From Mustelus asterias (Eukaryota), in the NCBI RefSeq assembly GCF_964213995.1, contig NC_135830.1, positions 4,588,001 through 4,652,000 of the forward strand: a DNA stretch of 64,000 bases, written 5' to 3'. Shown in pieces: positions 1 to 60,117 of the stretch. Position 1 is the stretch's first letter; every line of letters starts with the position of its first letter. The translations under genes and the position numbers were made by a program. The notes beneath the pieces are model-generated. The model was not told the origin of the DNA, did no database searches, and saw nothing but the letters and a program-made list of their open reading frames with translations.

Positions 1-1
1 C

Positions 2-97
2 TTTATTTCCGCTGGAACTCAGAATAAATTCAGAGAGGAGTTAGTGAATGCAGCAAAATATCCAATGAGAATAATATTAATGTTATTTAGCCGTTAA
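2..97 (+). CDS. 3' end (TM7/helix 8) of a GPR139/142-like GPCR, cut by the window edge (GPCR-0)
   Basis: Frame 2 reads FISAGTQNKFREELVNAAKYPMRIILMLFSR*. This aligns to the FIYAxTQxKFREQLK C-termini of the three other GPCRs in the window. Confidence 0.8.
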   Translation, partial: FISAGTQNKFREELVNAAKYPMRIILMLFSR

Positions 98-329
98 AAA
101 CATTACAATCTGCTGCGTATTGTATATTAGAATTGACCATTTGCTCTTATTGATTATGCCATGCAAAACGTCTCCTCATAGAAGCATATACACTATCTTT
201 GAGATCCAGTAACAGGCTGTCAATTCAGTTATATCTATATAACCCATGTAATAATGACACGGCATTTTTGATGGGTCTTTTAATCTACATGTAGATTGGT
301 CAAATCAGTTCGATCAAGGGAGCCTTGAG

Positions 330-3210
330 GAGGGGTTCAAAGGATATATTCACGTTAGTTTCCTCGAACGGTATGTACTGAAACCTACGTGGGAGTAAGC
401 TATCCAAGATCTGGTCCTATGTAATGAGGGAGGAATAATTAACGATCCTTCCTTTCATTACCCTTTCACGCTCTTTGGTTCATCCCTTCATCCCTTTTTC
501 TCAATTGTACCTCTCTCCCAGCCGTCTGCCGCCACCCCCCCCCCCCGCCCGCCCCCTCCACATCTTCATCTGACACAGCTTACCCTCTGATTTCAGCTTC
601 TCTGTTGTTTGGCCATTCACACATTCTATTCTCTCTATGGACTGCCATTAGGAGCCTTCCCCCTTGTTTTTGTGGCTTTGGCTCATCTTACATTCCTCCA
701 CCCTACAGTATAAATATCTCCGACTTCCCACATCTTTTAACTTTGCCAAAGGGTTATCTGGACTAGATGCATCAGATATTTTCTCTCCTTACAGACGCTA
801 GCCAGACCTGCTGGGATTTTCCAGTATTTTCGCATTTGGTTTCAGATTCCAGCATCCATAGTAAATTGCTTTTATCCCATAATAAATGATCTTATAGTGA
901 TGGATCCTCGCGGTAGGAGAGATCACAGTATGGTTCAATTTAAATTATAGATGGTGCGTGAGAGTCTAAAATCTAATACCCGTATCTTGTGCTTAAACAA
1001 AGGATACTACAATGGGATGAGGGACGAGTTGTCTATGGTAGACCGGGAGCAAAAACTTCGTGGAGGTACAATTGAAAAACAGTGGAGGACTTTCGAAGTA
1101 ATTTGTTTTTACAGTGCTCAGCAAAAGTATACAAGTATATAAGGAAGGACTGCAGAAAAAAGGTATAATCAGCCATGGGTGTCTCGGGAATTAAAGGGGG
1201 GGAACAAATTGAAAGGGAATGCGTACAAAGTGGCAAAGATTTGTGGAAAACTAGAGGATTGGGAAATATTTAAAGGTCAACGAAATGCCACGAAAAAAAA
1301 GCTATAAATAAAGTTAAGATACATCATGACAGTGAGAGTGAATATATAAAAAAACAACAGATAGCAAATGTTTTCCAAGTATATAAAACTAAAAAGATTG
1401 GCGAGGGTAAACATTGGTCTTTTAGAGGATGAGAAAGGGCATTTAATAATGGGAAATTGGGAAATGACCGCGCCATTGATCAGGCATTGATCAGGGATTT
1501 TGTGTTGGTCGTCACAGTGGAAGACACAAAAAACATGCCAAAAATTGATGGTGGCAATGTGAGGTGAGGACCGAGGAACGATCATTATCGTTGAAGAAGT
1601 AATGTTGGGCAAGCTAAGCACAGGCACACAAGTCTCCTGACGCTGATTAAATGCATCACAGGGTATTAAAAGAAGTGGTGTGGCAACGAACAAATGCACT
1701 GATGGTAAGTTACCAAATTCGCTGGAAACTGGGGCGGTTCCTGCAGATTGGAAAACAGCAAATGTGACACCACGGTTTAGAAAATGAGGCAGACAAATGG
1801 TGGGTAACAATAGGCTGGTTAGCTTAACTTAACTTCTGTGGAAAAGGTTTGAATCTATCATCAAGGAAGAAATAACGAGACATCTGAATATAAATTGCCC
1901 CATTGGGAAGACACAGCATGGGTTCATGCAAGGCAGGTCATGTTTAACAAAGTTACTGGAATTGGTTGAGGACATTGCGAGCGCGGGTTACAATGAGGAA
2001 CCGGTGGATGTGGTGTGTTTGGATTTCCAGAAGGCATTCCACAAAGAGCAACACAAAAGGTTAATGCTTGAGATAAAGGTGCACGGCACTATGGAGAATG
2101 TATTAGCATGGATGGAGATTGGTTAATTAAGAAGAAAAAAATGGTGGGAGTAAATGGGTGTTTTCCTGGTTGACGATCAGTGAATCGTGGTGTGCCTAAC
2201 GGATCAGTTCTGGGACTACAATTGTTTACAATTTACATAGAATGATTTGGAGTTGGGAAACAAATGTAGTGTGTCAAAGTTCGCAGATGACACTAAGATG
2301 AGTGGTAGAGCAAAATGTGCAGAGGGCACTAAAAGTGTACAAAGGGATTATAGGTGGTTTCAGGGAGTGGATAAGTGTCTGGCAGTAAATTCGAGGTCAT
2401 CCATTACGGTAGGAATAAAAGCCAAATCGGCTATTATTTAAATGGTACAAATTACAGCATGCTGCTGTGCATTGGGACCTCGGCATCCTTGCGCATGGAT
2501 CACAATACATGGTTTGCAGGCAAATTGAATGTTGTCTTTCATTGCTAAAAAAGAGGAGGTTATGTTTCACCTGTCTAAGATGCTGGTTAGGCCACAAATG
2601 GAGCATTGCGTACAGTTTTGGTCTCCATAATTGAGAAAGGATATACTGGCAGTGGAGATTTACTAGGTTGATTCCGGAGTTGAGAGTGATACCTTATGAG
2701 GAGAGAATGAATAGACTGGGACTATAATCATTGACTGGGACTATAATCATTGGAATTTAGAACAATGGCGGGGGGTGAGGGGGGGGGGGAGGTTGTGGGG
2801 TGGGGGGGATGGGATGGGGAAGATCTTTCAGAAACATATATATTTATGAAGAGAATAGATAAGATAGAATAAGCGTGGTTGTTACCACTGGCGAGTGAAA
2901 CTAGCACCAGAGGGCATAGCCTCAAAAAAAGGAGGAGCAGATTTAGGAATGAGTTGAGGAGGAACTTCCTCACATAAGGGTTGTGAATCTGAGGAATTCC
3001 CTGCCCAGTGCCGCAGTTGAGGCTACTTCGTTGAATGATTTAAGACAAAGTTAGACAGATTGTTTAACAGTGAAGGAATTAAGGGTTATGCTGAGCGGGC
3101 GGGTAAGTGGACCTGCGTCCACAAAAAGATTAGCCATGATCTTATTGAATGGTGGAACACGCTCTCGGGGCATGATGGACTGCTCCTGCTCCTATTTCTT
3201 CTGGCCTTGT
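330..3210 (+). mobile_element. Degenerate CR1-clade LINE ORF2 (endonuclease end plus RT), interrupted by a Penelope-derived insertion
   Basis: Fragmented ORFs contain GRSCLT, LDFQKAF and SKFADDTK. There are many stops and frameshifts and a CR1-like 3' end near 3100-3210. Boundaries are approximate. Confidence 0.85.
448..880 (+). mobile_element. Penelope-like terminal-repeat fragment inserted in CR1
   Basis: Ends in acagacgctagccagacctgctgggattttccagtatttt...ttcagattccagcatc, like 46780-46830. Flanked by ataattaacgatc / ataataaatgatc, a probable target-site duplication. Confidence 0.6.
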
Positions 3211-6265: not shown

Positions 6266-7760
6266 TCTTTGATGATTATATGTTTAATGGCATTAACATT
6301 AACCGTGGTTTTATCAGAGATCTGAAGCTGAACAGCACCAGCTGCAGACGGTCAGTGTAAATAGACACACGGGGACAAAACTGCTGGCAATTAATCCTTC
6401 AAGGCTGACTTTAAAGTATGTCCTTTTTTTCAGTGACTCTGGGTAAAAATCCTGAAACTTATTTCCAAGCACCATCCTCAGTGCAACTACAGCATAGCGA
6501 ATATAGCCTTCCAAGAAATTGGCTCTCTGCTAGTTGTTAGGTGCTATGAATGATTGGCAACAAAATCCATGGCAGAATTATTGAATTATGCCTTTGCTAT
6601 AAAATGAAGAAAACACATTTCAAGAAGTATTACTTTGCTATACTGTGAAGCAAGATTATGGAATGTTTGTACATGTATTTATGTGTGACTGATTTAATTA
6701 ATCTGCATACATTTCGGCTGAAATGTTTAAATAATCAAAATAACGAAGTGTTAGTAACATATATTTGAAGTGGAAATGACCAAGCTATGATATCAGAAGA
6801 TTGCAGAGTTGGATCATCAGCTCAGCACCAATGGTTTAAGAAGGCGATAAATTCTTCAGAACTACAACTTGACGCTGATGTGCTTGGTTCACCCATCATT
6901 GAGAAGCGGAAAATGTTTTTGAGACTATGGTGCCGATTAGTCTTTCTTTTTTTTTCTGATTTCCACGACCACTTACAACTGTATGGGGCATGACTGCACA
7001 GATTGTGATTTTGATCTTTCGAGCAAATTTGCATGTTTAAGTGATTGGTGCAGGCGATCACCAATCAAAATATGGTTATGATCGTCCCTGTTACAACATA
7101 TAGACCTGTCAGTTGTCGAGATGTTGTTTCATTGGTACAATAAGTTTGCTTGACCGTAAACTGGAAGGTTTAGGTGACTGGCAAAAGGAGATCACCTATC
7201 TGTACATTGCAATGATTGTTCACCTAGGCAGGAGGCTCAGCTGCTCATAAATTTGAATGTTTTTCTTTCTGGTCCAGCAAGGTCAATTGGAAGTAAATTG
7301 GAATGTTTGTTTCCTCAGGTACAGGAAGGACAACTGTCAGTAGCTTGTGAGATATTTCTAAGTAACATAGGAATTCCAATTGCTATGAAATTGGTCTAGT
7401 AATCGTTCTGCTGCAGGAATATCGTCCGTCAACAAGGTGGGAGCTTTGGGTCTCTGACACCGATTGGATTATCTGTCAACAAATTATGATGTGTATGTGT
7501 CTACCAGTGTGGGATTATCTGTCAATAAATCGGGATATTTGTGACTCTGGTTTAAGAATGTTCCTGTTCGTGAATTCGAATGCGTTTTTGTGTGTCCGAT
7601 GCAGGAAGATATAAACTTGCCAAAAAGCAGATAGAAAACATAGGCATCGTGCAAGCAATATTTATTCCCCAAGTATAAAGCAAGTCAATGTTGTCTATAT
7701 AATGTAGAAATGATATGATATATATTGTTTTCACTGTTTGAACAATTTATTGATTATAGC

Positions 7761-8635
7761 TCAGCGAATTGTCAACAGACTTTTCAACTGCTCTCTAAAT
7801 TTGCTCTGCGTTATTGCATAAATAAACGTGTTTGTGCAACAGCTTAACATCTGAAGCATGTTTCCACTTTCTTGAAAAATAAACTTAGGGTCACTAAATC
7901 CATTTATTTTATAATTCTTTATAAATCGATGACAAAAGAACTCCACAACATACGTCATCCACAATAGGATGAAACTACCCGAGATAGCAAATAGTAAAAC
8001 GATTGACTTTCTCCTACTCTCCATCTCTCTGTCATTGCTATTCTCTCCTCTACCCTGAATATGGAGTCTTCTTCGTGATCTGCTTGCAGCCAGGATGTGT
8101 CTGACAGTGAGGAAATTGAACAGAAGAATCAGAAAGAATGGGAGACAGGGAGTTATCATGCGGTCGAACCAATCAAATGCTGTCCATAATCGTGAAGTAT
8201 AACGGACATCCTTCTGTTTGCAATACCAGGGGATATTGCCAATTACGTAAATAGGTTCATGCATAAAGTACCAGGGGATGTTGATTAAAACACCCAACGT
8301 GCACACTGCTCCAATAACAACCGCTGCTGTTTTCTGGGTGCAATACTTCGTTTTAAGTTTCTGGCAACATATTGCTACAAATCGATCAAAAGTGAAAGCG
8401 ACTGTTAACCAAATAGAACTGTCCCTTGCTGCATATATTAGAGCAATGCTGAGACTGCAGACAGGAGTAATAGACAATAAACTGCCTGGGAAATAAATTG
8501 CAGGAATACGGTTCATTATCACGGCAGTGATGATGACCAGGAGATCTGTCACTGCCATGAAGACTAGGTATCTTGAGATACATCTGGAGAGACCACACTC
8601 TCCTCGGGAGATGACCACAATCGCTACCAAATTAA
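7761..8635 (-). CDS. GPR139/142-like GPCR-1, exon 2 (TM1 end to stop)
   Basis: Phase-1 acceptor cttacag|TT. Open frame with MAVTDLL (TM2), FTFDRFVAIC (TM3), PWYC (ECL2), RRKSIVLL and SCCTNTFIY (TM7). Confidence 0.93.
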
Positions 8636-8744
8636 CTGTAAGAAAGAGAGAAAAACGTCATTCCATAGAAACAGTTAGTAGCCATATATTATGGCGAGAA
8701 ATTCGAACATGTCACTGGATAACAACAATTAAAATGAAATAAAC

Positions 8745-9420
8745 ATAAAATGCTGCTGAGGGAATCTGAAACAGTACGGAGAATTCTGGAAAAACGCAAT
8801 ATGTTTGATAGCCTCTGAAGGAGTGGAAAATTGATTTAATATTTCCAGTACATTTGACTCTTCCTCAGAATGAAAGAGAGGGCGAATGAGCTGGATATTA
8901 AACTATAAATGGGAGAAATTGCAACACCTTGTAGGAACATTGAAAACAAAAGACAGATAGCCTGTGGCAGAGGGATGGGGAAATTAAGGGTTTTTGTACT
9001 GAGACAACAAAAGTATGGGACACTGAACAAAGAGAGAGGTTTAAGATGGAGGAGAAAAGTGACAGTTTAAATTTGTTAAAGTCAATGTCGAGTCCAAAGG
9101 CATGTAATAAGCGTAAATGGATGATGCGGTGCTGTTCTTCCAGCTTGCACTCGGCTTCACTAGATCATGGCAGCAGGCCCAGGCAGGGCATGTGAGCATG
9201 AGAACAAGCCAGTGAGACAAAATGTCTTGCAAATTAAGTTGCATGGGAAAGCTTTCCGGAGTTAAGTATCATAGAGAACTGGATCAAAGTGTTACTGGAT
9301 CAAAGTGTTAGCCGTCCTTTGGGATTCAGAGAGGGGTAAAGGGAATATCTGTGATAGGCCAAAAGGGAAGATGAGGTGCTGTTCCTCCAGTTTGCACTGG
9401 GCTTCACTGGATCATGGGCG
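8745..9420 (-). mobile_element. Penelope-like retroelement remnants (GIY-YIG C-terminal part, duplicated) in the GPCR-1 intron
   Basis: Minus strand encodes CKLEEQH-type peptides twice (about 9120-9150 and 9368-9400). Terminal-repeat-like sequence with CTGAGGA...GAAA at 8868-8842. Confidence 0.6.
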
Positions 9421-10570
9421 CTCAGCCGAAAACAGTTAAAGGCCAGAAGACAAGAGGACAACGCCGCCACCCTTTCAGCAGTTGTGACCACAAGGGCAAA
9501 TTTGAATCTACGAGGACGAGTGCAGGAAGTCTAGAAGGAGACATTTTAGTGTGGGTGAAAGGGACAGGAAAATTGAGCCGGCCAGTGCCGTGCTGACAGT
9601 TTTCAATGAAAGGATGAACAGCAGGTTGGAGGCCAGAATGTGGGTCGCAAGTTGTGGGAGAAAAAAATGACGGCACGTGAAAATATCAGTCGAACCGGCT
9701 AAAGACTCCTGCCCAAGGAATTGAGAATGGAAAGGGGGGTAACCGAAGAAAATTTGAGCATTGGAAAGAGCCCGAAATGAATTGTGGTGAGGAGGGAAGA
9801 AGACTAATTGTGCAATTGTCTGAGTGCTTTCTTCTTTATATCCATTCAAGGGCATATACGCATCTTATTTTAAATGCAACCGACTTTTCAGGATCCACTG
9901 CCGATCAGCTAGGATGTTATCAAATCCTGCTGTCAGAATCGAAATAAAATGTTTCTCCCCCACACGCACGCTAAAGTCTGCTGATTACCTTGAACTAATG
10001 AAAGCTGTTTATTAACTTCTCTGATAACTATTATTTCCAGGGCTTCAATCGAAACCTCATCACTCTGTACATTTTAATTTCGTCTCGTAAAATCAACCTG
10101 GATTCAAGTTTATATTTTTAATTTTCATAAATCGATGACAATTCCTGTGAATAGTTATTCATTCTCTCAAAATTCCAGAACGTTTTTATTTTAACCTTGT
10201 TTATATCCTTAGTGTTCTGATAGCCCATCCCTCTCTACCATAATTAATCCCTTGAATAATTTCGCAGCAGCGATCTTGATGACTACGGAGGTTGTTATCT
10301 TCAACAATTTAAAAACCACGTTTAAATAAAGCATTCATCAGAATTTAATCATTGAAGCTCTGGTATCCACTGGCTTCTATGCAGTTCACCGTCTTCCAGC
10401 AACAGATATGCTTCTGAGGATGAATGCTCAGATGTTAGTATGCTTCTCAGACGGCTTCTAAACACTGTTTCACAGACTATAGCAGAACTTCAATCCTTCT
10501 ACAATATATGATTCCTCTGCATATTGCTTAGTTTTCAGTGAGATTACAAAAAACATTGTCAACACTTTAC

Positions 10571-10640
10571 CTGGAACAGCGATGACTGCAAGTGCAGTGT
10601 AGAAAACAGCATATGCAGGACCTCTTGGTGGGGTATGCAT
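10571..10640 (-). CDS. GPCR-1 exon 1 (MHTPPRGPAYAVFYTALAVIAVP)
   Basis: ATG at 10640 and phase-1 donor CCAG|gtaaag at 10570. Splices in frame to 8635 to give a 314-aa 7TM protein. Homologous to the end of GPCR-3 exon 1 (YYPILAIVGVP). Confidence 0.85.
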
Positions 10641-11002
10641 TGTATGTGAGCAGTCGAGACGTCCGTTTGAGAACTCTGATGCGCTCTGTGCAAAATTCAT
10701 TGCACCCATTTTCATATGTGTTGCCAATCCGCCAGAGACACACTTAGATTATCTCATCGTTGATGTTAACTGCGCTAATTGAACAATTTCATTCGGTTGC
10801 ATCACCACTTTTGATATTTGCAGTCATTAAACAAATTGATATAATTACATCATCATCAATGTTAGTTACATTTATGAACATATTGAGCTCGATATAAAGG
10901 CAATAAAATAATTTACTTCGATAATTATTGCCATTATTTTCTCGTTTTAGTGTCCGTCCAATGGAGTGAATAAAATATGGTTTTCTGTGCGTTATGGCAA
11001 AG

Positions 11003-11240
11003 TTGTCTGCTCTGTGTGGAGTTTGCACGTTCTCCCCACATCTGTGGGGGTTTCCTCCGGGTGCTCCGGTTTCCTCTCATAGTCCGAAAGACGTGCTGGT
11101 TAGGTGCACGGGTCATGTGAAATTCTTCATTAATGTACCCAAACAGGCGTCTGAGTGTGGTGACTAAGGGACTTTCAGAGAAACGTCATTGTTGTGCTCA
11201 TGCAAGCCGACTTCTGAATAATAAATGAACTTTAAACTTT
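11003..11240 (+). mobile_element. 5'-truncated V-SINE with a different 3' tail
   Basis: gtgtggagtttgcacgttctcccc...gggtgctccggtttcct core shared with the other SINEs. Confidence 0.75.
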
Positions 11241-11254
11241 ATTTTAAAACTGCG

Positions 11255-12880
11255 ATTGATCCCATCCGGCTCAGCGGACTTGTCTAACGTAATACAATTT
11301 AGGATTCTCAAAATTTCCTCCTTCGATATGTTGGCATTCTGGAGAGTGTTCACACATCTATCCCTGACCTCAACATCCATCACGTCCTTCTCGTTGTTGA
11401 ATACAAAAACAAAGTAGTTATGAAGGATCTCACCGAATTCATGTGGCTACACACATGACTTCCCACCACTGTCCATGATATTTTTGATTCAGTTCCAGGG
11501 ACATGGGCGTCGCTGGCTGGCCAGTATTTGTTGCCCATCCCTAATCACCGTTCGCAGAGTGCAATTGAGTGTCAATCACATTGGCATGGCTCCTGAGTCA
11601 CATGCAGGCAAGACTAGGTAAAGAAGGCAGATTTCCTTCCCTAAAGGACATTAGTGATCCAGTTGGGTTTTCCCGACAATTGCCAATGTTTTCATGGTCA
11701 TCAGTAAATTTCTCAATTCCAGATTTCTTCTTTATGAATTTAAATTCCGCTATCTGTCGTGGCGCGATCCAAAAATGTGTCGCCAGTACATTGACTGAGT
11801 TTCTGGATTAATAGTCTAGCAATAATACCACTAGCTATTATTGCCTCCCCGTGGAACTACTCTGTTCTTGCTACCCTTTTGTTCATCTTACATGCATAAA
11901 AAACCTTGGGATTCCTCTTGTTCCTATTTGCTAAATACATTTCATGGTCCCTTTTAGCCCTCCTGATTCCACGTTTAAGTTCCTTCCTATTGTCACTATA
12001 CTCCTCAAGAATCAGTTTCTAAATGCCCAGATCTATCGTATGCTTCATTTTTTCCTGTTAACAAACCTTACAATTTCCATTGTCATCCATGTTACTCGAA
12101 TCCCTCCACTTCTATCCTTCATTTTTGTTGGCACATTCCTCTTCTGTATTTCAATCAACCGTCCTTTAAAAGCGTCCCACATGTGCAGACGTGGATTTGC
12201 CCTGAAAGAGCCGCTGTCACTCAACATTCGTCAGTTAATGTCTAATTTGGATGTAATTGGTCCTCGCCCAATCAAGCAACCTCACCAGAGGGCCACTCTT
12301 GCCTGATTCATGACGACCCGAATTCTTATTCAATTATGCTCGCTGAGCCCAAAATGCTCCCCCACTGAAATATCCATTACCTGGCCCGGCTCATTCCCCA
12401 ATATTTTGGCCGCTCCTTGGTTGGACTATCAACATATTGTGTCAAAAAAGCTCTCCCGGACAGTTCTAACACATTTCTCTCCATCCGTGCCCTTGGCTGT
12501 AAATGAGTCCCAGTCAATATGGGGGAAGTTGAAGTCACCCACCACACATACCCTGTTTTTATTTCAAACGTTTCAAGTATCTGACTAAACACCTGCTCCT
12601 CCTTCTCATGTGGTTTGTTGCAATGTCTATAGTACACTCCCAACTTTGTGCTTTCACCCTTTATATTCCTGAGCTCCAACCATAATGCTTCAATGCACGA
12701 TCCCTCCAATGTGTCCACCCTCAACACTACTATGATGTGCTCCATAATCAGCAATGCAACTTCCCCTCCACTTTCCTTTCCACTTCTGTCCCGTTCTAAA
12801 ACAACGATATCCTGGAATGTTAAACTGCTGTCCGTGTCCCTCCTTTAACCACATCGGCGCAATTGCAATCACATCACAAC
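11255..12880 (-). mobile_element. Degenerate CR1 ORF2 (endonuclease region) with a nested SINE at about 11487-11851
   Basis: Peptides ALWLELRN..LGVYYR, FLTQYVDSPT and DKSAEPDGI. The nested element has a tRNA-like head on the minus strand. Confidence 0.75.
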
Positions 12881-13050
12881 GATTGGTTCACCTCGAAGTG
12901 TGATGGAGGCAGCTTCATTCGACTCATTCATTGATTATTTGAATAACATTTCACGAAGGAACAGAATGGAGCAAGAAATGATGCATGTTTGGAGAGTCAC
13001 TGCAGACGCAATGGGCTGAATGGCGACCTTCTGCGTTGTAACGATTCTGT

Positions 13051-25432: not shown

Positions 25433-25492
25433 AGAATTTCTACCGATTCTGCCGAGAAGATCAGTCGGTTAGAAATCTCGTAATTGCAACTG

Positions 25493-43400: not shown

Positions 43401-43447
43401 CTCACTGACTTCTGGACTACAACTCCTTTTCCCACTCCCCTGACAAA

Positions 43448-46835: not shown

Positions 46836-46999
46836 CACGCATGGAATCGCTGTGTAAGGAACTGAAAGCACTAATAATGTTCCCACCGAACGCTATATAG
46901 CACTGCTTTTCTCTTAGAGTTTCAGCACTTTCACGTTAATCTAATACTGGTGGGAAGCAGGGTCAAAGCCGGAATTATTCAGTCTCGAATGAAATCTGC

Positions 47000-48500: not shown

Positions 48501-49035
48501 CCCCCATCGATCATTTTGGTTACCTCCTCGGAAAAATCAATCACGTTAGTTAACTTAACCTGCCCCTCTGACTTTCCCTCATTAGATCATGCCTTTCCAA
48601 ATGTGCATATATCCTACCCCATGGAATCCTCTCTAATGACTTCCCAAACACCGATGTGAGACTCACCCGTCTACAATTTCCTGGATTTTTTTTCTTGAAC
48701 AGAAGAACAACATTAACTACTCGCCAGTCCTCTGGGACCTCTCCAGTGGTAGCACAAAGATATTTGTCAAGGCCCCAGCAATCTCCTTTCCTACCTCTTT
48801 CAGTAAATTGGTGTAGATCCCATCAGGCCCTGGGGACGTATACATCTTAGTGCTCGTCAAAAGACCCAACACGACTTCTTTCTGGATCTCAAAAAGCACT
48901 AGCACATTAGCATGCTCCACGCTAATCCAAAAATCCTCCATATCCTTCTCCTTAGAGAACACAGATGGAAAGTCGTCCTTTAGGATCGCGCCCAAATATT
49001 CTTCCTCCAAGAACAAGTTCCCTCCTTTATCCATG
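48500..49035 (-). mobile_element. Degenerate CR1 ORF2 fragment
   Basis: SVFSKE..SPGPDGIY..LLKE peptide. Confidence 0.75.
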
Positions 49036-49782
49036 AGTGGACGACATTCTCCCTCCTTATCTCTCCCTCAATGTCAACAAAACGAACGAGATAGTCATCG
49101 ACTTCAGGGAGTGTAGGGGAGGAACAAGTGGAAATGGTCGACGGCTTCAAATTCCTAGGTGTCTCGAACACCAACAAACTGTCCGGGTCCCTCCATGCCG
49201 AGGCTATAGTTATGAAAGCTCACCAACGCCTCTTCTTTCTCAGGGGACTAAGGAAATTTGACATGTCCGCTGCGACTCTCACCAAAGTTTACAGATGCAC
49301 CACAGAAAGCATTATTTCTGGTTGTATCACAGCTTGGTGTGACTCCTGCTCTGTTCCCAAGACCGTAAAAAAACTACAAGGCGTCGTGGAAGAAGCCCAG
49401 TCCATCATTTAGAACAGTCTGCCACCCATTGATACTGTGTACACTTCCCGCTGCGTCGGAAAAGTAGCCAGCATAATTAAGGAATCCACGCACCCCAGAC
49501 ATAATCTTTTCCAACTTCTTCCGTCGAGAAAATGATCCAAAAGTCTGAGGACAAGTACCAAACGACTCAAGAAAAGATTCTTCCCTGCTGCCATCAGACC
49601 TTTGAATGGACCTACCTCGCATTAATTTGATGTTTCTGTACACCCTAGCTATGACTGTGACAGTACGTTCTAAACTCTGCCCCCTCCTTCATAGATCGAC
49701 ACTATGCTTTGACTGTGTTGCACGTACGAAAGAATACTTTTCACTGTATACTAATATAGGTAACAGTAATAAATCAAATCAA
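49036..49782 (+). mobile_element. Rex1/Babar-type LINE 3' fragment
   Basis: LNVNKTNEIVIDFR and KAHQRLFFLRGLRKF peptides, with an aaatcaaatc tail. Confidence 0.8.
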
Positions 49783-49809
49783 GTCATAAAAGAAACGGCA
49801 AGTAAAATT

Positions 49810-50102
49810 GCCATGATGGTACAGTGGTTAGCACTGCTGCCTCACAGCGCTAGGGCCCCGGGTTTAATTCCGGCCTCAGATCACTGTCTGTATGGAGCAT
49901 ACACGTTCTCCCCGTGTCTGCGTGGGTTTCCTCCCGGTGCTCCGGTTTCTTCCCACAGTCCAAAGATGTGTTGGTTGGGTTGATTGGCCATGCAATGTTG
50001 ATCCGTGTGTCAGGGGGTCTGGGTGGGATTGTAGTCGTTGCAGCCTCGATGGCCCGAATGGCCTCCTTCTGCATTGTCGGGATCTGATGGGATTCTATGA
50101 TT
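49810..50102 (+). mobile_element. HE1/V-SINE-type SINE (a further 3' fragment lies at about 50520-50655)
   Basis: Head, core and attctatga tail as in the other copies. Confidence 0.85.
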
Positions 50103-53100
50103 TTCACCACATGCAATAGCAAAGTGTGTCCAACAGATGGCTATGAAACCTCGAATTTTGGCATTACAGGAAACGGAGATTGTCTCAATTATTACTGCAA
50201 AGGTCTCGGTCTCTGCTCATCTTGAAATGCACCCAGCCTCTGTTTATATGCCACGAAATCACATTTCTGAATGTATGACAATAATTAAGTTATTTCTGTA
50301 CTCAGCAAATTCCCAATTGTCATTATGGTTATTCAGAACTTAACTGATATACAACAGCATTGAATTAAATCTTGGCCAATGTCATAATACTCCATTTCTG
50401 AGTTGTTACTTGACGAGAACGTGTCTGTCCTGATTCTGTACCAGAACATGTTACTGTTTGCACATCGCAAGGCTCTGTCTCAGTTATTATATTGCTGGAA
50501 CCTGCCACGTATACACGACATGTGTAGGTTAGAGGGATTAGTGGGTAAAATATGTCGGGATTTGGGGGTAGGGCCTGGGTGGGATTGTGATCGGTGAAGA
50601 CTCGATGGGCCGAATGGCCTCTTTCTGTACTGTAGGATTTCTATGATTTCTATGACATCTCAATCACTGCTGCACCAGCCCAGCTCCCTGTTCATAACCA
50701 ACAATATCCTGTCACTGTTATTATTGTGTTATATCATGTTTCTTTATTGCTGCACTTGTCCCTGTCAAAGCTTATATTATTGGAACGTCTTTGCCATTAA
50801 TTACTGTGCCAGGCTTTGTCTCAGTTTCTATTATACAATGTGAGGAATCAGAAACAACTAATTACGTTCGATCCTCTTTTGTTATTACTGCGCCAGACCA
50901 AACCCCTCTTCATCTTCAGCAAGATACGGTCTCAATTTTACTTTACTCAGTACTGCCCCACTTTTTCTTCCACTGGGCCACATCTCAATTCACTTCAAAT
51001 TATATCATGTCGCTGTTTATATTCCGGTCGTATCTGTTTTAGCCTACAATATTATAAAACCGTTTTCAGATTTTTTATTATTGCAGAATTTGTCCTTGTT
51101 CATATTAGAATAGATCTGGTCGTTTCCATAACTGCACCACTCTATTTCTATTACAGGAGACCACGCTGATTATTAATATACCAGATCTTGTTTCAGTAAA
51201 TACTAAACTGGACCTAGTATCCGCCCATATTACGACATATACTGTATCCATAATGAGTGCACTGTGCCCTGCCTCTGTATTACTGCACAAAAGTCTGTCC
51301 TTATTTTTATTAAAATAGACGATGTCGATGAAATATCACATCGGCTCTTGTCTTAGGTATTTGAGTGCTTATTATTTCAAATAGTCTATTTCCTAATAAC
51401 CCTTTTTGGAGAAAATTCACTTTATCTTTACAATTTCCCTTTAATTGTCCGATTCATCAGTTTCATGCATCTCCAGCTTCTGTGAATGTATGAAAATCAC
51501 AAACAGTCCATGCATTTCAATTAAATGATTATTTAATAATGTAATAATTAATTGATTAGCTTTCTGTTGCATACTCTTGTTTCTACAGTGCCTTTATTGT
51601 GTACCGTGTCGGATTATCTCCCTTTGGAGATCAGTTGGAAAATGAAGTGAAATCCAACGCGAATGATGAGCGGATTAATGGAAAATGGTCATCTCAGCAT
51701 GTCACAGAAGCTTCTGATATAAACCTCCGATGTTTGCTGATTTGTGCAAATGATTTCAAAAATGAACCTGGACCTTTCCCTGAAAGGAGATAAATGCGCC
51801 TGTACTTCGTATTGCTATTGATGCAAAGGACTGAAACATTTGCTGCTCTCCAGAGAAGGTTCAATATTTATGTTTCTGTAGTTTTTAACCGTTGCATTCA
51901 CCAATTCCATGGTAATGATCCGCAACATTTTGGTAGATTGGACTCCCTGTAGGTTATACTCTAAATAATCGAATATAAGACAGGACCACGTGCATCATAA
52001 AGATTGACCAGGCCTTGTATGATATTCACAGAGACCCGAGCTGATGAACGTGGACTGCATCAGTTCAGGAAGACAGCTCATCTCCACCTTCTAAAACGTA
52101 ATTAGGGAAGGGCAACCCATGCCAGTGACGCCCGCATAAATGATTTAAAATCGTGCAGAAATATAAGACACTAAATCTGGTCGAAGAATAAACAGATATA
52201 CCAGCGCAATGATAACATGAACTGTGCGTTGGAGTAACATAAACCAATTTATGGGTTACATTGAATAAGAGATTCATGATCAGCTATAACATTAAAATAA
52301 ACAGTAATTTGTGTGATCTTTGTAGAAAAAGTACTTTGTGGAATAATGACTAGTGGCAGTCAAATATAACAAAACGATACACAGGTCTTTTATTCAGAAT
52401 TGATAAGCTAACTGTTTCCAAAAATAATCATGGAGAATTAGAGCATTAGAATTTTAATGACCGGCTCCAGTGTATCAATAACAGAGACTGCTGGGCCCGG
52501 GGTCAGACTGTAGTGTGATATAAGGAAACAATTAGTTTTAGGGCCTTCGCGCAGGGTTTTGTGTCATGGTGAGTGACCCAGGGTTCTCTGTAGCAATCAC
52601 AGTGTGGAAACATCATTACAGAGGAAGGAGTGACTGACTCCATCTGACCACGAGCTGATATTCCGAAGGAGAGGACAATCATGGCGGATTTGTGATATCT
52701 GAGGGGCAATGCTGCATTTGTCAGACGAACAGAAAGCAGCCTGTTATTTCCCTTTCTTAGCAACTATTTACCTACACAAACTGGGGTCAGGTCCTGCAGC
52801 TTGCAGAAACCTGGATTTAAATTTTCAACTAAGGAAATATGATGACTGAAAAGTTTAAATATCGAATCATCATCAGAGGGGAAAAGAAAATAGTGCAGCA
52901 TATGTTAAGGGTAATTGTGCTTTTCCTAACAAAGTTCTATCCAGTGTCATTCTGTTCAAAGTGATGGTTTGTGAATAGTAATTAATGTATGAATGTTTCC
53001 TGGCATTTCCCGACATATATACACATACAGATTCTGTCAAAAGACGGAATCAGTCCAAGATGACAGCTGTATAAATATTGCATTTTATTCAATCTCAATT

Positions 53101-53589
53101 CAGGACAGAGGTAGATCCAGAAAGGATGCTGGCACAATTATATGGATGAACCATTCAAATGGCCCCATTGTTCAATAGCCCTTTAAATTTTAATCCCATC
53201 AAGGATTTTCCTAATTTGTTTTCCAAAGTCACGGTTAAATCTGATTCCATCACCATTTCAGGCAGTCCATTCCAGGTCACAACAACTTACTGTGTAAAAT
53301 GATATAAATACCCTTCTGTCCTCCTGTTCAAAAACAAAATCTGTGCCGATTGGTTACCGACCGCCCTCCCGGTTAAAAATAAGTATTTATTTAAATACCC
53401 CTCCCCCAACTTCATGATTTTCAGCATTTATGAAATAGACTCACGAGAACATGGATTGAGATACAGGGAAAGATAGAAAAAATAAAACGAGAAAGAAGTA
53501 CAGGGTGCTGACAGATAAAATGCTCAGAAACAAAAAGAAAAGAAACAAAGGCAGAGAAAATGATACAATTATGAAAGGAATGAAGAATT

Positions 53590-54198
53590 TTGTCCTTCAT
53601 TGCTAGATTAAAAACAGCGAGGTTATGTTGCAGCTGTATAAGGTGCTGGTGAGGCCACACCTGAAGTACTATGTACAGTTTTGGTCTCCTTACTCGAGAA
53701 AGGATATACTGGCACTGGAGGGGGTGCAGAGGAGATTCACTAGGTTGATTCTGGAGTTGAGAGGTTTGGCTTATGAGGAGAGACTGAGTAGACTGGGGCT
53801 ATACTCATGGGAATTTAGAAGAATGAGGGGAGTTCTTATAGAAACATATAAGATTATGATGGGACTAGATACGATAGAAACGGAAACAGCTGAAACTACA
53901 ACTAGGGGCATGACCTCAAAATAAGGGGGAGCAGATTTAGGACTGAGTTGAAGAGCAATTTCTTCACCCAACTGATTGTGAATCTGTAGAATTCCCTTCC
54001 CAGTTGATGCTACCTCATTGATGTTTTTAAGGTAATGATAGATACATTTTTGAACAGCAAAGGAATTAAGACTATTGGTGAGCGGGCAGATAAGTGGAGC
54101 TGAGTCCACGAAAAGATCGGCCATGATCATATTGAACGGCGGAGCAGGCTCGAGGGGCCAGATGGCCTACTCCTGCTCCTCGTTCTTATGTTCTTATG
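53590..54198 (+). mobile_element. CR1 3' fragment
   Basis: MLQLYKVLVRPHL peptide and ttcttatg tail. Confidence 0.9.
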
Positions 54199-55467
54199 TA
54201 ACAAGCGATTGTTTCCCGCCTTCACGGAACCCGGGTGAGCTGGGTGATTGATCCATTGACCATCCAGTTATGACCAAGAATGGAAATTTTAAAGAGATCA
54301 CAGGCTCATTTGTAAATGTCACCACAATGTGATCTGTGTGTCTCTGCCCTGACTCTCTGGACAGATATAGGCCGCATTTACAGATGTTCTCTCCAGATTG
54401 TGAAACAGGAAGATGCGTTACCTGAGAATGAAACAGCCAGCGTCAGTCTTCCTGCCTGTGAGGGTGAACTCATTCTGATAGCATTAAGAACAACCACACA
54501 GATTGGTGCCGGTCACAGTATTACATTCAACTCCATTTCCATTTTAAAGAATAACATCAATTATAACATATGGACTAAAGACATTAACTGGAGAGGAGAT
54601 GGACTGAAGTTTATCACTTGGGGAAAAGAATGAAAATTCAAGCAATAATGTTGCCCACAGAATGTAACTGTAAAATACAAACTTTCAAGTGTGTTAGCTG
54701 TTGTGTGAGAGAAATCGAGGAAAGAGGTTAACTGAATGAACTAATCTGAATCTGGTTCTGAATTTTTTGTGATTCAGCTTTTCAATCACAAAGTGCCTGA
54801 AGCCAAAAATTGAACATTGGGTTCTCGCAGCTGTCAGGTCCAGCTCTTAGGTGCATGGGTAAGTGAGTTAATTGAGATTGAGAGGGGGAAGAGATATTAT
54901 CTGATTTAGGTAGAGTTTGAGACTGAGAAAGAGAGGATAGCAGCAAACCATTTGAAAGATGCATTACCTTGCTAGCAGAATGGCCAGCTGTACATCACGT
55001 TCAACAGCGTCCCAGGTAATGTATTACCTTTAGGTATTGACTGAGGCTTAGAATCTGCAAGCAAACACTCAATAAATTATAATAACATGCTTAAGGTCAA
55101 TATCAATTATTTGCAACTTCCTTTTGAAAACAATGAAAAAACATGTGTATCGTCATCCACATCCACACATTACAGGTGCACTCACAAGGATGGCACAATC
55201 GTTAGCACTGCTAACTCAGCACGCTCGGGATGGATTGGCGGGGATGCGGCGGGAGCGTGCTGTGTTAACAGAAACAAGGTACATTGTGATAAAACTAAAC
55301 TCAAGGAGCAGTGAAATTCAAATGAATACATGGTCGCACTATAGTAAGAACTACAAATATGGTCAATTATCGGTTTCAAGGAATCATTGACTGATGCAGT
55401 AACTGATATAAGATCTAATGTTATGGACCCCGAGGGTCAACTAGAGAAAGAAAGAGAAGGACAAGTA

Positions 55468-55775
55468 CATAGCTTTTTCCCAGATCAGAAGTGACGTTCA
55501 CGAGGGGTCACGGGCTCAAGGTGAGAGGGGCGAAGTATAACTCAGATATTAGAGGGATGTTATTTACACAGAGGGTGTTGGGGGTCTGGAATGCGCTGCC
55601 AAGTAGGGTGGTGGAGGCAGGCACGCTGACATCGTTTAAGACTTACCTGGATAGTCACATGAGCAGCCTGGGAATGGAGGGATACAAACGATTGGTCCAG
55701 TTGGACCAAGGAGCGGCACAGGCTTGGAGGGCCGAAGGGCCTGTTTCCTGTGCTGTACTGTTCTTTGTTCTTTGT
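55468..55775 (+). mobile_element. Short CR1 3' fragment
   Basis: TRGHGLKVRG..FTQRV..WNALP peptide and ttctttg tail. Confidence 0.85.
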
Positions 55776-56869
55776 ACAGTGATAGACGAGATAGGACTCA
55801 CTGAACTGTTAACAGTGACATTGTATAGTACAGTATTAAATATAACAGGGTATTGTGATATTTGCAGCTACAAAATGGGCGTGAAATAAACTAAGCCCAA
55901 GCTGTAACGGAATTGCTTGAATAGGGGATTCATTTCCAAACTGAGACATGACTGAGCTTCGCAACAACTAAGACTGGATTCCAGTGCTATGTCTATATTC
56001 AGAATATCTGCAGTCATTACTGATACGGAGTCTGGATCTATGTAAACTGACACAGCATTTTGAGCTGAGATTGCTGATGCAGAGTCCGGATTAATAAAAC
56101 CTGAGACAGCGGCCGGAATGTCATTGTCCAGCCCGCACGGGAATTGCAGCGGGTAAGAGGCGGACCATGGAAAGGTCTGTTGCTGTCGGGCGGGACTTTA
56201 CGGTCCCAGGACTGGTTTTGCTGCCATGAACACTTCATTGAAACCAGTGAAGTATTTATGGAAATTAACACAGAATTAGAAATCCCAGATTGCGTTGTTG
56301 ACTGACAGAAACATAACAAATATTTCCCCACCAACACAGCACAGACACAAAGAGAAACATGAGAATAAATCAACGGCTTCGAGTGGGGATTCTGTATTCT
56401 TTTGGAAATTTTTTCTTCATCAGTTATTTACGACAAACAAGCGATGATGAAATTTATGTTCAGAATTAGGAGAAATTAACTCAAATCCCGAAATATAATG
56501 GCAGGGCCAATGTTTTTGTGGAGACATCCTGTGTTTTTTTTCTCTGTCTGTCTTTTTCCTGTCTAACTATGTGTCGTTTCCCTCCATGATGCGTGTTTGT
56601 CTTCACTCCACAACATGAAGTCAGCTTCCAGTCAATGTATCACCGCAACCCTATTCACAGGCTTTTAACGAAATGAGTCTCATTCAGTGAATTGGATTCC
56701 GTGGAGGGAACTTTCCTCGAACATTTGTCATGAGCATTCAATGACCTCAGAGTGTTCAATTGGAAATGTAGGGGAAATTTAACAATGTATCCAACCCGGG
56801 CTGTACCTCGTGGTGGGATTTGATGTGGCAGTACCAAAGGATCTTTCTCTGTATTTATCCAGTGCTTTC

Positions 56870-58490
56870 CCTGCTCTTGGCCCTGCCTCTGTTTATATTG
56901 CAGTATACCCTGTCTCTGTTCATATTAATGGAGTCATATAGTCATAGAATCACCGATTCATGCAGCGCAAAAGAGGCCCTTCATTCCACCTAGTCCACAT
57001 TAACACGTCGAGACAAGCTAACTGTTTATACTAATCTGGACACCTTTTTATTTTTATATTACACGTCTCCATGTCTCTGTTTATATTAAATAAGGCCCTG
57101 ACGCTGTTTATATTAATGTCTCTGCTTGTATTTAACTGGATTCAGTCCCAGTTCTGCACTTCAATATGCCCATGTTTATATTACATTCGACACGGCCTGC
57201 TCCCAGTAATGTGGAAACTGGCTGGGGGAAAATAATTCTCTATATCCTCCGACACATACAACTCTATGGAATAGGAAGTTGTCTTGTGCACTGGCGAACA
57301 CGAATATCTGAAATCTAATTCTGCTGACTACTATGAAAATCGCCATTAAGCCCTGCATAAAATGTGCTGTCGATCTAATACTCTCCGTTTCAGGAAATTG
57401 CCGGGAACCTATTTTTAACCCAATATATTTATTTATTATATTCTTTCCATTTCGCAAAAAAACTGCAGTATTGTAGCCATAATCCAAACAGAGGCATAAT
57501 CTAGAACATTAATAACAGTGACCCAGAGTGAAATATAGACAGAGTATGGAAAAACTATCATCTAAGCAGAGATTAGGTCCAGTGCAATATAAACTACGTT
57601 CTGGCCTGGTGGAGTAATAACAGGGGCAGCGTCTATTTTAATATAAGCAGTGAACTTATTCTAGTAATGAGGTAGTGCCGACTGCCAATGGGGGATGGTC
57701 AAAAGTCAAATGCTGGTATTTCCAATGACGCCTGCATCCCAGGAAATAAACGTTAAAACGTATGTATGACATGGTCCAGTGAGGGAAAACTGAGACAATG
57801 CCTAGTGTATTTCTAATGGATGCAGGAGTTTCTGCGATACAAACTGAGACAGAATCTCATGCATTATTGTAATTCCAATTGCAGAACCTAGATCGATATT
57901 CACTGAGGCAGGAACTAGTGTATTAGCTATGATTATTGATACAGGACCTATACTGATATAAATTGGGACGCACCCTAGTGCATTCGTAGGAATTTCTCAT
58001 ACGGGATGCAGAAAAGTGTACACTGAGACATGTAATGCAGCAAATAGGGTCTCCCATAATAAAATAATAACGGAGAGAACATGGTGCAAAGGATACAAAT
58101 ACATGGACTGCTGAAGCACTAACTGAAACAGGGTCGAGTATATTAGAAACTAATTAATTAGTAGCGCAATAACTCTGACCAAACCGTGGGTTAATGCAAG
58201 AAAGATAGCGGTGTTCCTAATTATTATACAGAGATAAATTTTCCAAGCGAACATAAAAACTGAGGCAGAGCTTCTTGCCAGATTAACTGAGACATAGTTC
58301 AACGCAGTCACAACGAAGAAAGTGTAACATAAACAGGGCGCTGGCCTTATATGTGAACAACTGATGTTGAGCCGAGTGCAGAAACAATGTAGAACGTGTC
58401 TGCTGTAAATACGATCAGAGACACCACCTAGTGTAACATAAACAGAGGCGGATAGGGTGTGGACCAGGTGAATATAGGCACAGATCTGAT
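56870..58490. repeat. Degenerate 27-bp satellite (consensus about ccctgcctctgtttatattacactagg) in two opposed blocks; related block at about 50660-51330
   Basis: 27-bp period at 56881/56908 and 57069/57096. Reverse-complement units such as ctagtgtaacataaacagaggc at 58428. Confidence 0.6.
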
Positions 58491-59683
58491 TTGCTTAAAA
58501 TTATTTAATGGGATTTGGCGTCACTGGGAAGTTCAGCTTTTGTGACCAGTTCCTAATTTCCCTTGAGAATGCAGTGCTGAGCCTTCTTCTTGAACCATTG
58601 CATTTCATACTGAGGAAGCACACCCACAGTGGTGATAGTAAGGGAATTCCATGACTTTCATCCAGTGACAGTGAATGAACAACAATATAGTTCCCCGTCC
58701 AGATGGTGTGTGGCTTGGTCGGGAACTTGTTGGTAGTTGTATTCCCACTCATCTGCTGCCCAATCCTTTTAAGTATCAGAGTTAATACAAAGGAGTGTCC
58801 TATTGAACTAGTTGCTGTACATCTGGTACATAGTTAACACTGCCAGAGTTGTGCGCCCATGATGCAGGGAGCACGATGCAGGTGGTGGATGGGTATTTTG
58901 TCCTGGATGGTGTCGAACATCTCGGGTGTTGCTTGAGAGACACACGTCTGATTGGTAGTTCCAGTAAGTAAACACTGTGGTCCTGTAGATAATAAAATCG
59001 GCGTGAGATGTGAAAAGTAGATGAAGTAACAATGATTAGAAGACAACGCTTAGATGGAGTAAGAAGGGAGGAGGGACGTGATTTTAAGTTCAGCAGCAAA
59101 ACAGACCAGTTCAGCTGAATGGCGTCTTTCTGTGCTGTAAGCTTAAAGTAACTTTCTAGTTCAGACCAAAATGTTCACCAAGAAAAGGATGGTAACCACC
59201 TCTGCTCCGAACTGAAAAACTGGGCAAATCCCAAAATGAAAAATGGAAACCTTTAAAAGTCAGCATCACATACACTTTTCTAGGTCGGGTAGATAATTAA
59301 GAAATATCTCCCCTTCGTGGAAGGGTCAACAACCAGATGATATAGATTTAAGTTAAGGAACGGTAGAGTGAGAGGGCATTTGTGGAGAACCTTTATCACC
59401 CAGAGGGTGTTTTGAATGTGCAACTAACTGCCTGAAAGGCTGGTAGGGGCAGGAACTCCACAGCATTTTAGAGAAATTTAAATGGGTCCTTGTAACACCA
59501 ATGCATCCGAGGCTATGGAGCAAGTGTTGGACAATGGAATTAAAAGAGATTGGTGTTTCTTGGCTAACGCAGTTACAATGGACTGATGGGCCTTTTCTGT
59601 GCTGTAAAACTCTATGACTCTAAAGCCTCTATCCAGGAGTTCTATTGCCTCCGAAATTGACGCATGATGTATGTTTTCGATAG

Positions 59684-60075
59684 TTAAAAATCCACAGGAA
59701 CCCTCCGTTTCTGTCCTCCTGCCCTCGGCAGAAGAAGTCTCCGCTCACAGGTTCGTCTCCCTCAGCTGCTGAGTGAGAGGTTTCTCCCCCCGAGAGATCT
59801 TCGTCAAGTGGACGATCAATGACAAGCCAGTGAATCCCGGGAACTATAAGAACACCGAGGTGGTGGCGGAGAACGGCAATGGCTCCTTCTTCATGTACAG
59901 CCTGATAGCTATTGCAGTGGAGGAGTGGTCCAGTGACACTTCTTACTCATGTGTGGTGGGACATGAAGCCATCCCCTTGAAGGTCATCGACAGGACGGTT
60001 GACAAATCCAGCGTTAAACCCGGTTTTGTGAACATTTCTCTTGCACTGATGGACACCGTCAATTCATGTCAATGA
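59684..60075 (+). pseudogene. IGHM: IgM heavy-chain C-mu4 plus secretory tail exon with a premature stop
   Basis: Acceptor tttcgatag|TT. Reads [41 protein letters not shown]...[44 protein letters not shown]1-set Cys/Trp/Cys, tailpiece with NIS sequon and penultimate Cys, TGA at 59770. Confidence 0.92.
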
Positions 60076-60102
60076 GAATCATACAGTTATATTCGAAACT
60101 GC

Positions 60103-60117
60103 AATAAACATAATAAA
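60103..60117 (+). terminator. Tandem AATAAA polyadenylation signals of the secretory mu transcript
   Basis: AATAAA at 60103 and 60112, about 30 nt after the stop. Confidence 0.7.

Follow-up and report, generated by a model that had tools for sequence, protein, structure and literature searches.

Four members of a large, putatively chemosensory GPCR family in a duplicated IgH/TCRδ block of the shark Mustelus asterias

Background

GPR139 and GPR142 are each encoded by two coding exons and share an agonist pocket that consists of E3.32, F3.33, H5.43, W6.48, R6.51, and N7.38 (PMC7318219). In cartilaginous fishes, the olfactory repertoire comprises 20-62 genes with a mean of 43.8, and it is held to be the smallest olfactory receptor set of the vertebrates despite the many sensory neurons of these animals (PMC10869828). 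In other sharks, published work shows IgM, TCR V, and NARTCR segments intermingled, with TCR V and NARTCR segments lying between IgM clusters on one chromosome, and neither the text nor the supplements of that paper name GPCRs in the complex (PMC12227049).

The window, by which the whole analysed stretch of 64 kb is meant, is part of a contig (C71) that resembles this antigen receptor complex but also carries GPCR genes. On balance, it can rather be expected that the window is a duplicated IgH/TCRδ block with four copies of an elasmobranch GPCR family that is separate from GPR139/GPR142 and likely chemosensory, with the V and IgM pieces likely being passengers. The family would then be an unreported resident of the shark antigen receptor complex.

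The GPCR genes of the window

The four paralogous class A 7TM genes in mixed orientation (+, -, +, +) that the first-pass annotation had listed are all present, and they are here called G0, G1, G2, and G3:

2..97, plus strand: 3' tail of G0, helix 8 and stop; the gene body is directly upstream of the window (locus L036)
7761..8635, minus strand: G1 exon 2, from the TM1 Asn to the stop, open
10571..10640, minus strand: G1 exon 1, short N-terminus and first half of TM1
18621..19526, plus strand: G2 exon 2, frameshifted in the T-run 18775-18781
34678..34900, plus strand: G3 exon 1, repeat-containing N-terminus and first half of TM1
38602..39503, plus strand: G3 exon 2, open

Class A membership follows for G1-G3 from Pfam 7tm_1 matches above the cut-off (7764-8657 on the minus strand, E=1.8e-23 for G1; 18744-19523 and 38580-39500 on the plus strand). 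The Foldseek matches of a predicted model (pLDDT 84) are all class A peptide-type receptors with TM values of about 0.6-0.7, and GPR139 is not among the 49 matches listed, a set too limited to bear on kinship. Two of the four genes are broken, G2 by its frameshift and G0 by an in-frame TAA near ECL3 that makes it a pseudogene; G1 and G3 have open reading frames, and G1 has an additional in-frame ATG at 10715. Exon 1 of G0 was located in L036 together with a homeodomain and O/E-like promoter motif, exon 1 of G2 was looked for and not found, and the three closest copies of G2 elsewhere have open frames. According to the tree, G1 belongs to a clade that is concentrated in the IgH/TCRδ complex, and the sister group of G3 is a large subfamily under positive selection, most of which is found outside the Ig/TCR complex.

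The shared phase-1 intron in TM1 is real, as the acceptor (AG/NN) lies immediately 5' of the TM1 Asn in all four genes, and donors (G/GT after xxP) are found at 10571(-) in G1 and at 34900(+) in G3. Also DRF in place of DRY holds for all four. The conserved loop EMESRRKSI stands as a general pattern, but its exact conservation does not, with EMECRRKSI in G2 and EMEKRRKSI in G0, and likewise NTxIY in place of NPxxY fails in G0, whose TM7 ends NxFIS. In a DNA-type read run, the summed contig depth, which is not a copy number, was far higher over G3 exon 2 than over its intron.

Relationship to GPR139, GPR142 and orphan receptors

The genes had been called GPR139-like, but they are orthologues of neither GPR139 nor GPR142. 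True GPR139 and GPR142 exist separately, with one match each (on contigs C23 and C12), and the family is 26-33% identical to GPR139, falls into a different clade, and has not kept the pocket, so that GPR139 orthology is rejected. A role as sensors of aromatic amino acids can therefore not be transferred to the family. In the tree, the family joins an amphibian orphan, with GPR139 and GPR142 apart; when monophyly with the family was tested against invertebrate relatives, GPR139/142 grouped with 5/6 outgroup rows under an arbitrary root. E3.32 and R6.51 are present in 15/15 GPR139/142 sequences, whereas in 77 rows of the family neither ranks among the five most frequent residues of its site; 60 of these rows have Asp3.37 and 12 have N7.38. 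The six pocket positions are I/Y/D/W/Y/N in G1 and L/Y/H/W/L/F in G3, and thus neither has the pocket of GPR139/142.

There is nevertheless a wider relation. GPR139/GPR142 are the best PDB sequence match of G1 (E=1.4e-7), they share with the family W6.48 and the two-exon structure, in which the phase-1 acceptor 5' of the TM1 Asn is the same in shark GPR139 and GPR142 is consistent with it, and they have F7.50 in 15/15 sequences, so that the missing NPxxY proline is a feature common to them and the family. By this intron and the absence of Pro7.50, the family may belong to a wider GPR139/142 lineage; the own exon 1 of GPR139 was not found in 60 kb. Unlike GPR139 and GPR142 with their one copy, the family has more than 1,500.

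Type I orphans, which are amphibian proteins labelled 'probable GPR139', are sister to the family (99.3/100), and type II orphans of shark, coelacanth, sturgeon, teleosts, amphibians, and reptiles stand next to it (61.7/91). Both differ from the family in that they appear with about one gene per species and are not expanded. To judge from taxon overlap, they are probably GPR210A/B of Rinne et al. 2019; the GPR210 taxa include coelacanth, gar, and fishes, overlapping with type II, and the word 'shark' is absent from the main text of that paper (PMC6504862; reference ids ENSLACP00000014196, 15589, and 19189).

Family size and turnover

A birth-and-death family had been proposed, and it turns out to be very large. 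For one TM3 motif, the assembly gives 1,525 exact matches and the control 0. Haplotigs inflate this count, and variant clusters escape it, such as a 4-Mb stretch of C15 in which >60 additional copies carry a DRM variant. Exon 2 is open in 15 of 20 sampled copies and the other 5 are broken. Databases hold 1,898 related proteins at E<=0.001, with sharks in 119 of the best 120, rays are among the named representatives, and subfamilies are common to different shark orders. An ancestral gene with two exons, whose sister is an amphibian orphan of low copy number, has multiplied into clusters on many chromosomes, and copies die through stops and frameshifts. The family is thus large, clustered, and subject to birth and death as is typical of chemosensory repertoires; in the literature outside subscription journals, no description of the expansion was found.

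Copy number and interleaving could be artefacts of the assembly, caused by uncollapsed haplotypes and misjoins, and there are indeed near-identical scaffold pairs (C128/C270 99.9%, C131/C71 99.5%, C108/C88 99.7%) and many motif matches on small scaffolds. Such an origin is highly improbable, as the first 100 motif matches and the C15 cluster are on contigs >100 Mb, the duplicate of the window differs by 7-11% and carries its own insertions, other sharks have many annotated paralogs, and the mixing of IgM, TCR V, and NARTCR has been published for other sharks as well. A mostly neutral expansion would be another explanation, in which a short two-exon gene multiplies in regions rich in repeats through segmental duplication and unequal crossing over, its loops diverge by drift and are mixed by gene conversion, and few copies matter. 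The broken copies, both in the window and in the sample, and the identity in protein of some copies (L162-L164) agree with it, but not the 15/20 open frames and the subfamilies shared between shark orders, and together with the selection data below this makes it a rather improbable explanation.

Family-like contigs of about 80% identity occur in two presumed-RNA contig sets that carry no tissue labels, and no exon 1-exon 2 joint was seen in them.

Association with antigen receptor loci

Between and behind the GPCR genes, the block contains pieces of antigen receptor genes:

6802..58948, plus strand: segmental duplication, colinear with C71:7.252-7.311 Mb at about 89-93% identity
23227..23442, plus strand: 5' part of a V relic, NARTCR-type (second, TCRδ-side) V segment with a Cys in CDR1
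23443..26043, no strand: two LINE insertions around a short V fragment from FR3 (25439-25492), which bears a stop
26044..26190, plus strand: 3' end of the V (YYCALSR, V piece 26044-26089) and two tandem RSS
59684..60075, plus strand: orphan IgM CH4 and secretory tail, best PDB matches Ig mu (E=1e-33)

The TCR V relic with RSS between two GPCR genes that had been noted before is present, split by LINEs and of the NARTCR type. A Cys in CDR1 is a feature of the supporting Vδ of NARTCR. The 5' part of the relic has 76% identity with a V at C71:14.35 Mb that is open and follows a NAR-V/D/J cassette. This paralog has the characteristics of a NARTCR second V (VNAR-only PDB matches, RSS 22/12/12/22, J, then V-RSS23); the PDB search gave no type for the second V itself, nor for the C1 exon at C22:53.07 Mb. 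A NAR-V upstream of the relic had no tblastn match in the window, where only flanking DNA matches, and the V in the window is therefore a truncated NARTCR relic. Its RSS at 26090 has a perfect heptamer and nonamer and a 24-nt spacer, the second RSS at 26152 has a 23-nt spacer, and these two are the only ones with a perfect heptamer at a score of at least 13 in the 64 kb. Since there is no strong RSS other than those of the V, a RAG-type rearrangement of the GPCRs is rejected. The IgM exon downstream of the GPCR genes was likewise found again, as a lone CH4 and secretory-tail exon with an in-frame TGA at 59770-59772. VH and other CH exons were not detected in the window, while VH-CH3 are present in the duplicated block, and a functional IgM cluster with VH, D, J, and CH1-CH4 in frame is thus not contained in the window.

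The GPCRs had been suggested to co-duplicate with antigen receptor loci. This is true for the block itself, which has a colinear counterpart of 52 kb at a distance of 2.7 Mb, but not for most of the family. In the fully listed subset, 41/56 copies lie outside Ig/TCR regions. The TM3 motif has no match in two IgL clusters, and 140 kb of the C16 cluster with 8 family loci contain no V or CH match. A family-wide tie to antigen receptor loci is rejected, and the link is local to the IgH/TCRδ complex: C71 has 26 IgM CH4 and 12 Vδ-like matches, about 10 family copies lie within 264 kb, and 91/134 of the G1-nearest copies are on contigs with IgM or Vδ, versus 18/131 of the G3-nearest copies. As the duplicate is colinear, both Ig/TCR pieces are broken, and the C16 and IgL clusters are not mixed, the V and IgM pieces were likely carried along as passengers when the GPCRs were duplicated. 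Whole blocks of GPCRs, NARTCR V, and IgM cluster are copied together in the complex and decay, and the window illustrates how IgM and NARTCR cassettes get copied and lost.

The local link could also have a functional reason. The family may be an immune repertoire of germline-diversified receptors by which leukocytes or barrier cells recognize peptides of microbes or parasites, like FPRs or MRGPRs, and one clade may reside in the IgH/TCRδ complex through shared lymphocyte regulation. The skewed distribution of the G1-nearest copies agrees with this, and so do the bamboo-shark orthologue of the Ig-linked clade (100/100) and the motif matches on C8 at 31.0 and 37.0 Mb, which flank exons of the MHC class II type. 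In catshark, a family cluster is on a contig of 133,841,611 bases, which is inferred to match the Ig/TCR chromosome 17, whose listed genes extend to 133.54 Mb (PMC12227049 table S1). However, most copies are away from Ig/TCR and the IgL clusters have none, and we regard an immune repertoire as unlikely, though less so than a neutral expansion.

Selection on the outer face

Diversification of ligand-facing loops, which had been postulated for the family, is indicated by codon models in two subfamilies but not in the Ig-linked clade. Under codon models that assume no recombination, set A (19 sequences) has an extracellular ω=1.92 versus 0.43 elsewhere at equal dS, and set B (17 sequences) has 1.64 versus 0.61. 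In set A, the positive class is kept under site-rate variation (2ΔlnL 68.8), and 16/18 top sites are extracellular. Set C, the Ig-linked G1/G2 clade, is under purifying selection (ω 0.25; 0.17 for the non-extracellular part) with no positive selection. In young subfamilies, ECL1, ECL2, ECL3, and the outer helix ends thus seem to change fast, with the cytoplasmic side constrained. The older Ig-linked clade is conserved, and its ligands are probably fixed.

For a neutral expansion it can be argued that the region-wide, tree-free NG86 estimates of extracellular dN/dS are near 1, with 1.06 (0.72-1.61) and 0.94 (0.64-1.40), and that dS of set B is 2.5-fold higher outside the membrane, a sign of gene conversion or mosaics, but neutrality fits neither the low non-extracellular ω in all three sets nor ω>1 at equal dS in set A. 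Positive selection of the outer face is also typical of host-pathogen conflict and thereby compatible with an immune repertoire, yet it is in the Ig-linked clade that diversifying selection is missing.

A possible chemosensory role

A homeodomain site is present in 6/10 promoters at a background of 5.4%, and a pair of homeodomain and O/E-like sites in 4/10 at 0.6%, in a test that was defined after seeing the sequences and with promoters that are not independent. The pair is absent from the G1 and G3 promoters. O/E sites are EBF1 sites of B cells as well. Pairs occur even in copies of the Ig complex, which speaks against an immune repertoire. Like vertebrate OR, TAAR, V1R, and V2R genes, the family shows clustered birth and death, a variable outer face, and some OR-like promoter motifs, and unlike them it comes from another receptor lineage. 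Chemosensory use is the best guess, a role predicted from sequence. The family may have kept a common G-protein interface and given each receptor a different pocket, and the set would thereby read many external ligands, probably peptides or metabolites and not Trp/Phe as in GPR139. The weakest step is a presumed expression in olfactory-type sensory cells, and in a catshark olfactory library the top-50 genes include no GPCR (PMC11979771).

Mammalian OR clusters flank TCRα/δ and MHC. It may tentatively be proposed that about 1,000 genes derived from a GPR139-sister orphan form a hidden set of chemoreceptors in sharks and rays, >10x their known olfactory receptors, and that an old clade has been in the IgH/TCRδ complex since the shark orders split, in place of the mammalian OR clusters. 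A family more than 1,000 strong and diversifying on its outer face has been masked by the automatic label 'probable GPR139', and it would either overturn the view of a small olfactory set in cartilaginous fishes or amount to a new germline-encoded set of immune sensors.

Expansions independent of the shark family are known from invertebrates. The atlas neighbours of the family are FMRFamide-receptor-like clusters with 7TM_GPCR_Srw, as in the srw chemoreceptors of nematodes, and Pfam srw has no match in the window proteins; in snails, FMRFamide-receptor-like GPCRs are a clustered expansion of a related branch with about 450 genes in Lymnaea (PMC11589774).

Receptor genes and relics in the window

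The receptor genes, the T-cell receptor V relic and the IgM exon described in the first-pass annotation of the window (G000:C71:4,588,001-4,652,000; G000 denotes the assembly, C numbers its contigs) were borne out, with corrections that include a stop in G0 and a frameshift in G2:

2..97, plus strand: G0, end of a fourth GPCR gene with its body upstream of the window; in-frame TAA
7761-10640, minus strand: G1, two exons, open frame
18621-19526, plus strand: G2, frameshift in a T-run (18775-18781)
23227-26190: V relic (NARTCR-type second V), three pieces split by two LINEs, recombination signal sequence (RSS) at its end (26090)
34678-39503, plus strand: G3, two exons, open frame
59684..60075, plus strand: IgM exon, a single CH4 with tail, containing TGA

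Three open frames of the window match Pfam 7tm_1 above cut-off, G1 and G3 have a phase-1 intron before the TM1 Asn, and the three closest copies of G2 (L058, L069, L070) are open. The N-terminus of G3 (34678-34790) is a tandem repeat with N-x-T sequons (NLRTxGCNVTTxDQ), present in 1-6 copies in paralogs (P0005, P0038), and, as judged from its sequence, probably forms a glycosylated stalk of variable length.

Relation to GPR139 and GPR142

The family is not GPR139 itself, which is ruled out by a separate GPR139 gene, by an identity of only 26-33% and by a tree position apart. A GPR139-specific motif has one match in the assembly (C23), in an exon with 84-93% identity to ray and tetrapod GPR139, and a search with this exon retrieved GPR142 (C12, 57%), followed by the family at the identity stated. 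In an IQ-TREE tree of 53 rows (a subset of 121, arbitrarily rooted), the branch joined to the elasmobranch family is a low-copy orphan of amphibians (SH-aLRT/UFboot 99.3/100), the next sister (61.7/91) is an orphan conserved in shark, coelacanth, sturgeon, teleost, frog and turtle, and GPR139 and GPR142 stand apart. Both orphans probably correspond to GPR210 (PMC6504862). Common ancestry of the family and GPR139 is supported by the shared intron acceptor. The residues of the GPR139 agonist pocket (PMC7318219) are not conserved: E3.32 and R6.51 occur in 15 of 15 GPR139/142 rows, whereas in 77 family rows neither is among the five commonest residues at its site; Asp3.37 is found in 60 of the 77. 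Two further low-copy orphan GPCR genes of non-mammalian vertebrates are also labelled 'GPR139' (P0336, P0439, P0331, P0407 and relatives), with no mammalian member in 120 rows.

Size of the family

Searched for as a 26-base pattern, which would catch 14 of 16 motif instances checked, FTFDRFVAI has 1,525 matches in the 3.68-Gb assembly (reversed control, 0); the pattern misses a subfamily of more than 60 copies with DRM in place of DRF (C15:80.4-84.4 Mb). Numbers per haplotype are lower than 1,525 because near-identical scaffold pairs (99.5-99.9%) inflate the count; the first 100 matches listed are all on contigs >100 Mb, and exon 2 is open in 15 of 20 loci sampled at about every fifth of these. 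At the protein level, 1,898 relatives were retrieved; all but one of the best 120 bear shark names, nearly always with the label 'probable GPR139', and ray proteins are among 20 representatives looked up. No chimaera member is among the named matches of this search. The receptor family is real, large and mislabelled, and is a birth-and-death GPCR repertoire; the literature search, limited to sources outside subscription journals, found no account of its expansion. Several C15 copies (L151, L154, L158, L159, L161, L165, L166) have Arg for the ECL2 Cys in open frames, and some also Tyr for the TM3 Cys, by which the class A disulfide is lost with the frame still open.

The link to antigen-receptor loci

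By hand count, C71 has 26 strong IgM CH4 matches and 12 matches to the V relic and is therefore the antigen receptor complex of PMC12227049, a paper whose text and supplements do not mention GPCRs. An open paralog of the V relic is positioned behind VNAR-type V, D and J segments that carry their RSS, and this arrangement is a NARTCR cassette. The family is represented by about 10 copies or fragments in the 264 kb around the window, which also hold 5 TCR-like V segments and an IgM cluster. The window from 6.8 to 58.9 kb is colinear with C71:7.25-7.31 Mb at 89-93%, where the same four GPCRs and the split V are followed by a VH, a further CH exon and CH4; a more distant version lies on C88. Co-duplication of GPCRs with Ig/TCR elements is thereby shown for this block; in the copy within the window, most of the IgM cluster has been lost. 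The mixing is real and local, and is most simply caused by segmental duplication. A near full-length CR1-type LINE (40558-43975, minus strand) has long open frames (reverse transcriptase part, 523 aa) and copies 94-96% identical in the duplicated blocks.

Family-wide, the co-duplication proposed in the first-pass annotation does not hold, as most copies lie elsewhere. Contigs with IgM or Vδ matches hold 91 of the 134 nearest matches of G1 (41 on C71), against only 18 of 131 for G3. G1, the paralog of G2 and their neighbours form a clade (92.3/99), to which a bamboo-shark orthologue and two copies located on other chromosomes also belong. In a codon subset listed in full, biased to the codon of G1, 15 of 56 motif matches are on IgM/Vδ-bearing contigs, and in another C71 holds 16 of 170 with 0.55% of the assembly; the Ig/TCR complex is therefore one enriched home among many. 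A 140-kb part of the C16 cluster contains 8 loci of the family and neither V nor CH matches, and two IgL clusters, typed by sequence reading (C13:60.1-61.4 Mb, C8:50.2-51.1 Mb), have no matches in the whole-assembly motif listing. On C8, family matches at 31.0 and 37.0 Mb lie on either side of MHC class II beta-like exons (34.4-34.7 Mb), which is no more than suggestive of a link; family copies are strung along C8:5.9-44.4 Mb. Those at C22:49.5-53.1 Mb end 0.3 Mb from a single C1-set exon, by reading a putative TCR constant exon.

Selection

Exon 2 was analysed with our own codon-model code on fixed GTR trees without recombination, after removal of sequences >99% alike (kept: set A, 19 of 22; set B, 17 of 21; set C, 19 of 30). 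For set A, the subfamily adjoining G3 (G3 itself excluded), M2a exceeds M1a by a 2ΔlnL of 302 with ω2 ~10 (68.8 and 4.9 with site-rate classes), 16 of the 18 top sites fall on the extracellular face, which makes up 87 of the 297 columns, and ω is 1.92 there against 0.43 in the rest at equal dS. Set B, from C15, has 1.64 against 0.61, with dS also higher outside (0.87 vs 0.35), which points to a mosaic history. By pairwise NG86, the extracellular face reaches no more than 1.06 and 0.94, and the intervals include 1. Set C, the G1/G2 clade, has ω of 0.25 and 0.17, and the codon models found no positive class among its 19 sequences. By the codon models, the diversifying loops suggested at first reading are found in sets A and B, whereas the Ig-linked clade is conserved; diversification and Ig linkage are separate, the diversifying copies being mostly away from Ig/TCR loci.

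Possible function

Modelling shows a predicted class A fold, and the family has a constrained cytoplasmic side, a variable outer face and birth and death of its genes; we infer a multi-ligand sensor set. Between the chemosensory and leukocyte repertoires considered in the first-pass annotation, chemosensation is the likeliest use, with somewhat better than even chances, because of promoter motifs, the small number of olfactory receptors known from sharks (PMC10869828) and the expansions that the related branch has undergone in parallel (atlas; snails, PMC11589774). A homeodomain site is found in 6 of 10 family promoters (background 5.4%) and a homeodomain plus O/E-like pair in 4 of 10 (background 0.6%), among them that of G0, in a post hoc test on promoters related to one another; the pair is absent from those of G1 and G3. 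Immune sensing comes next and is rather doubtful.

NARTCR-type V segments

Behind the NARTCR-type second V there are tandem 61-base repeats with one RSS-23 each (window 26090-26250; L020, L024, L026, L184), 2 in the window, 3 in L024 and at least 6 in L184, and by their sequence these extra RSS could be alternative rearrangement points. The flanks of the V relic (22242-23220 and 26384-26959) match the J-to-V spacer of an intact NARTCR cassette, the downstream match being a partial copy in inverted orientation. Directly upstream of an intact cassette is a CA-rich satellite of ~11 kb (L180-L181, G000:C71:14.335-14.347 Mb) with well over 100 RSS heptamers (CACAGTG/CACACTG) and ACACACACA pseudo-nonamers.
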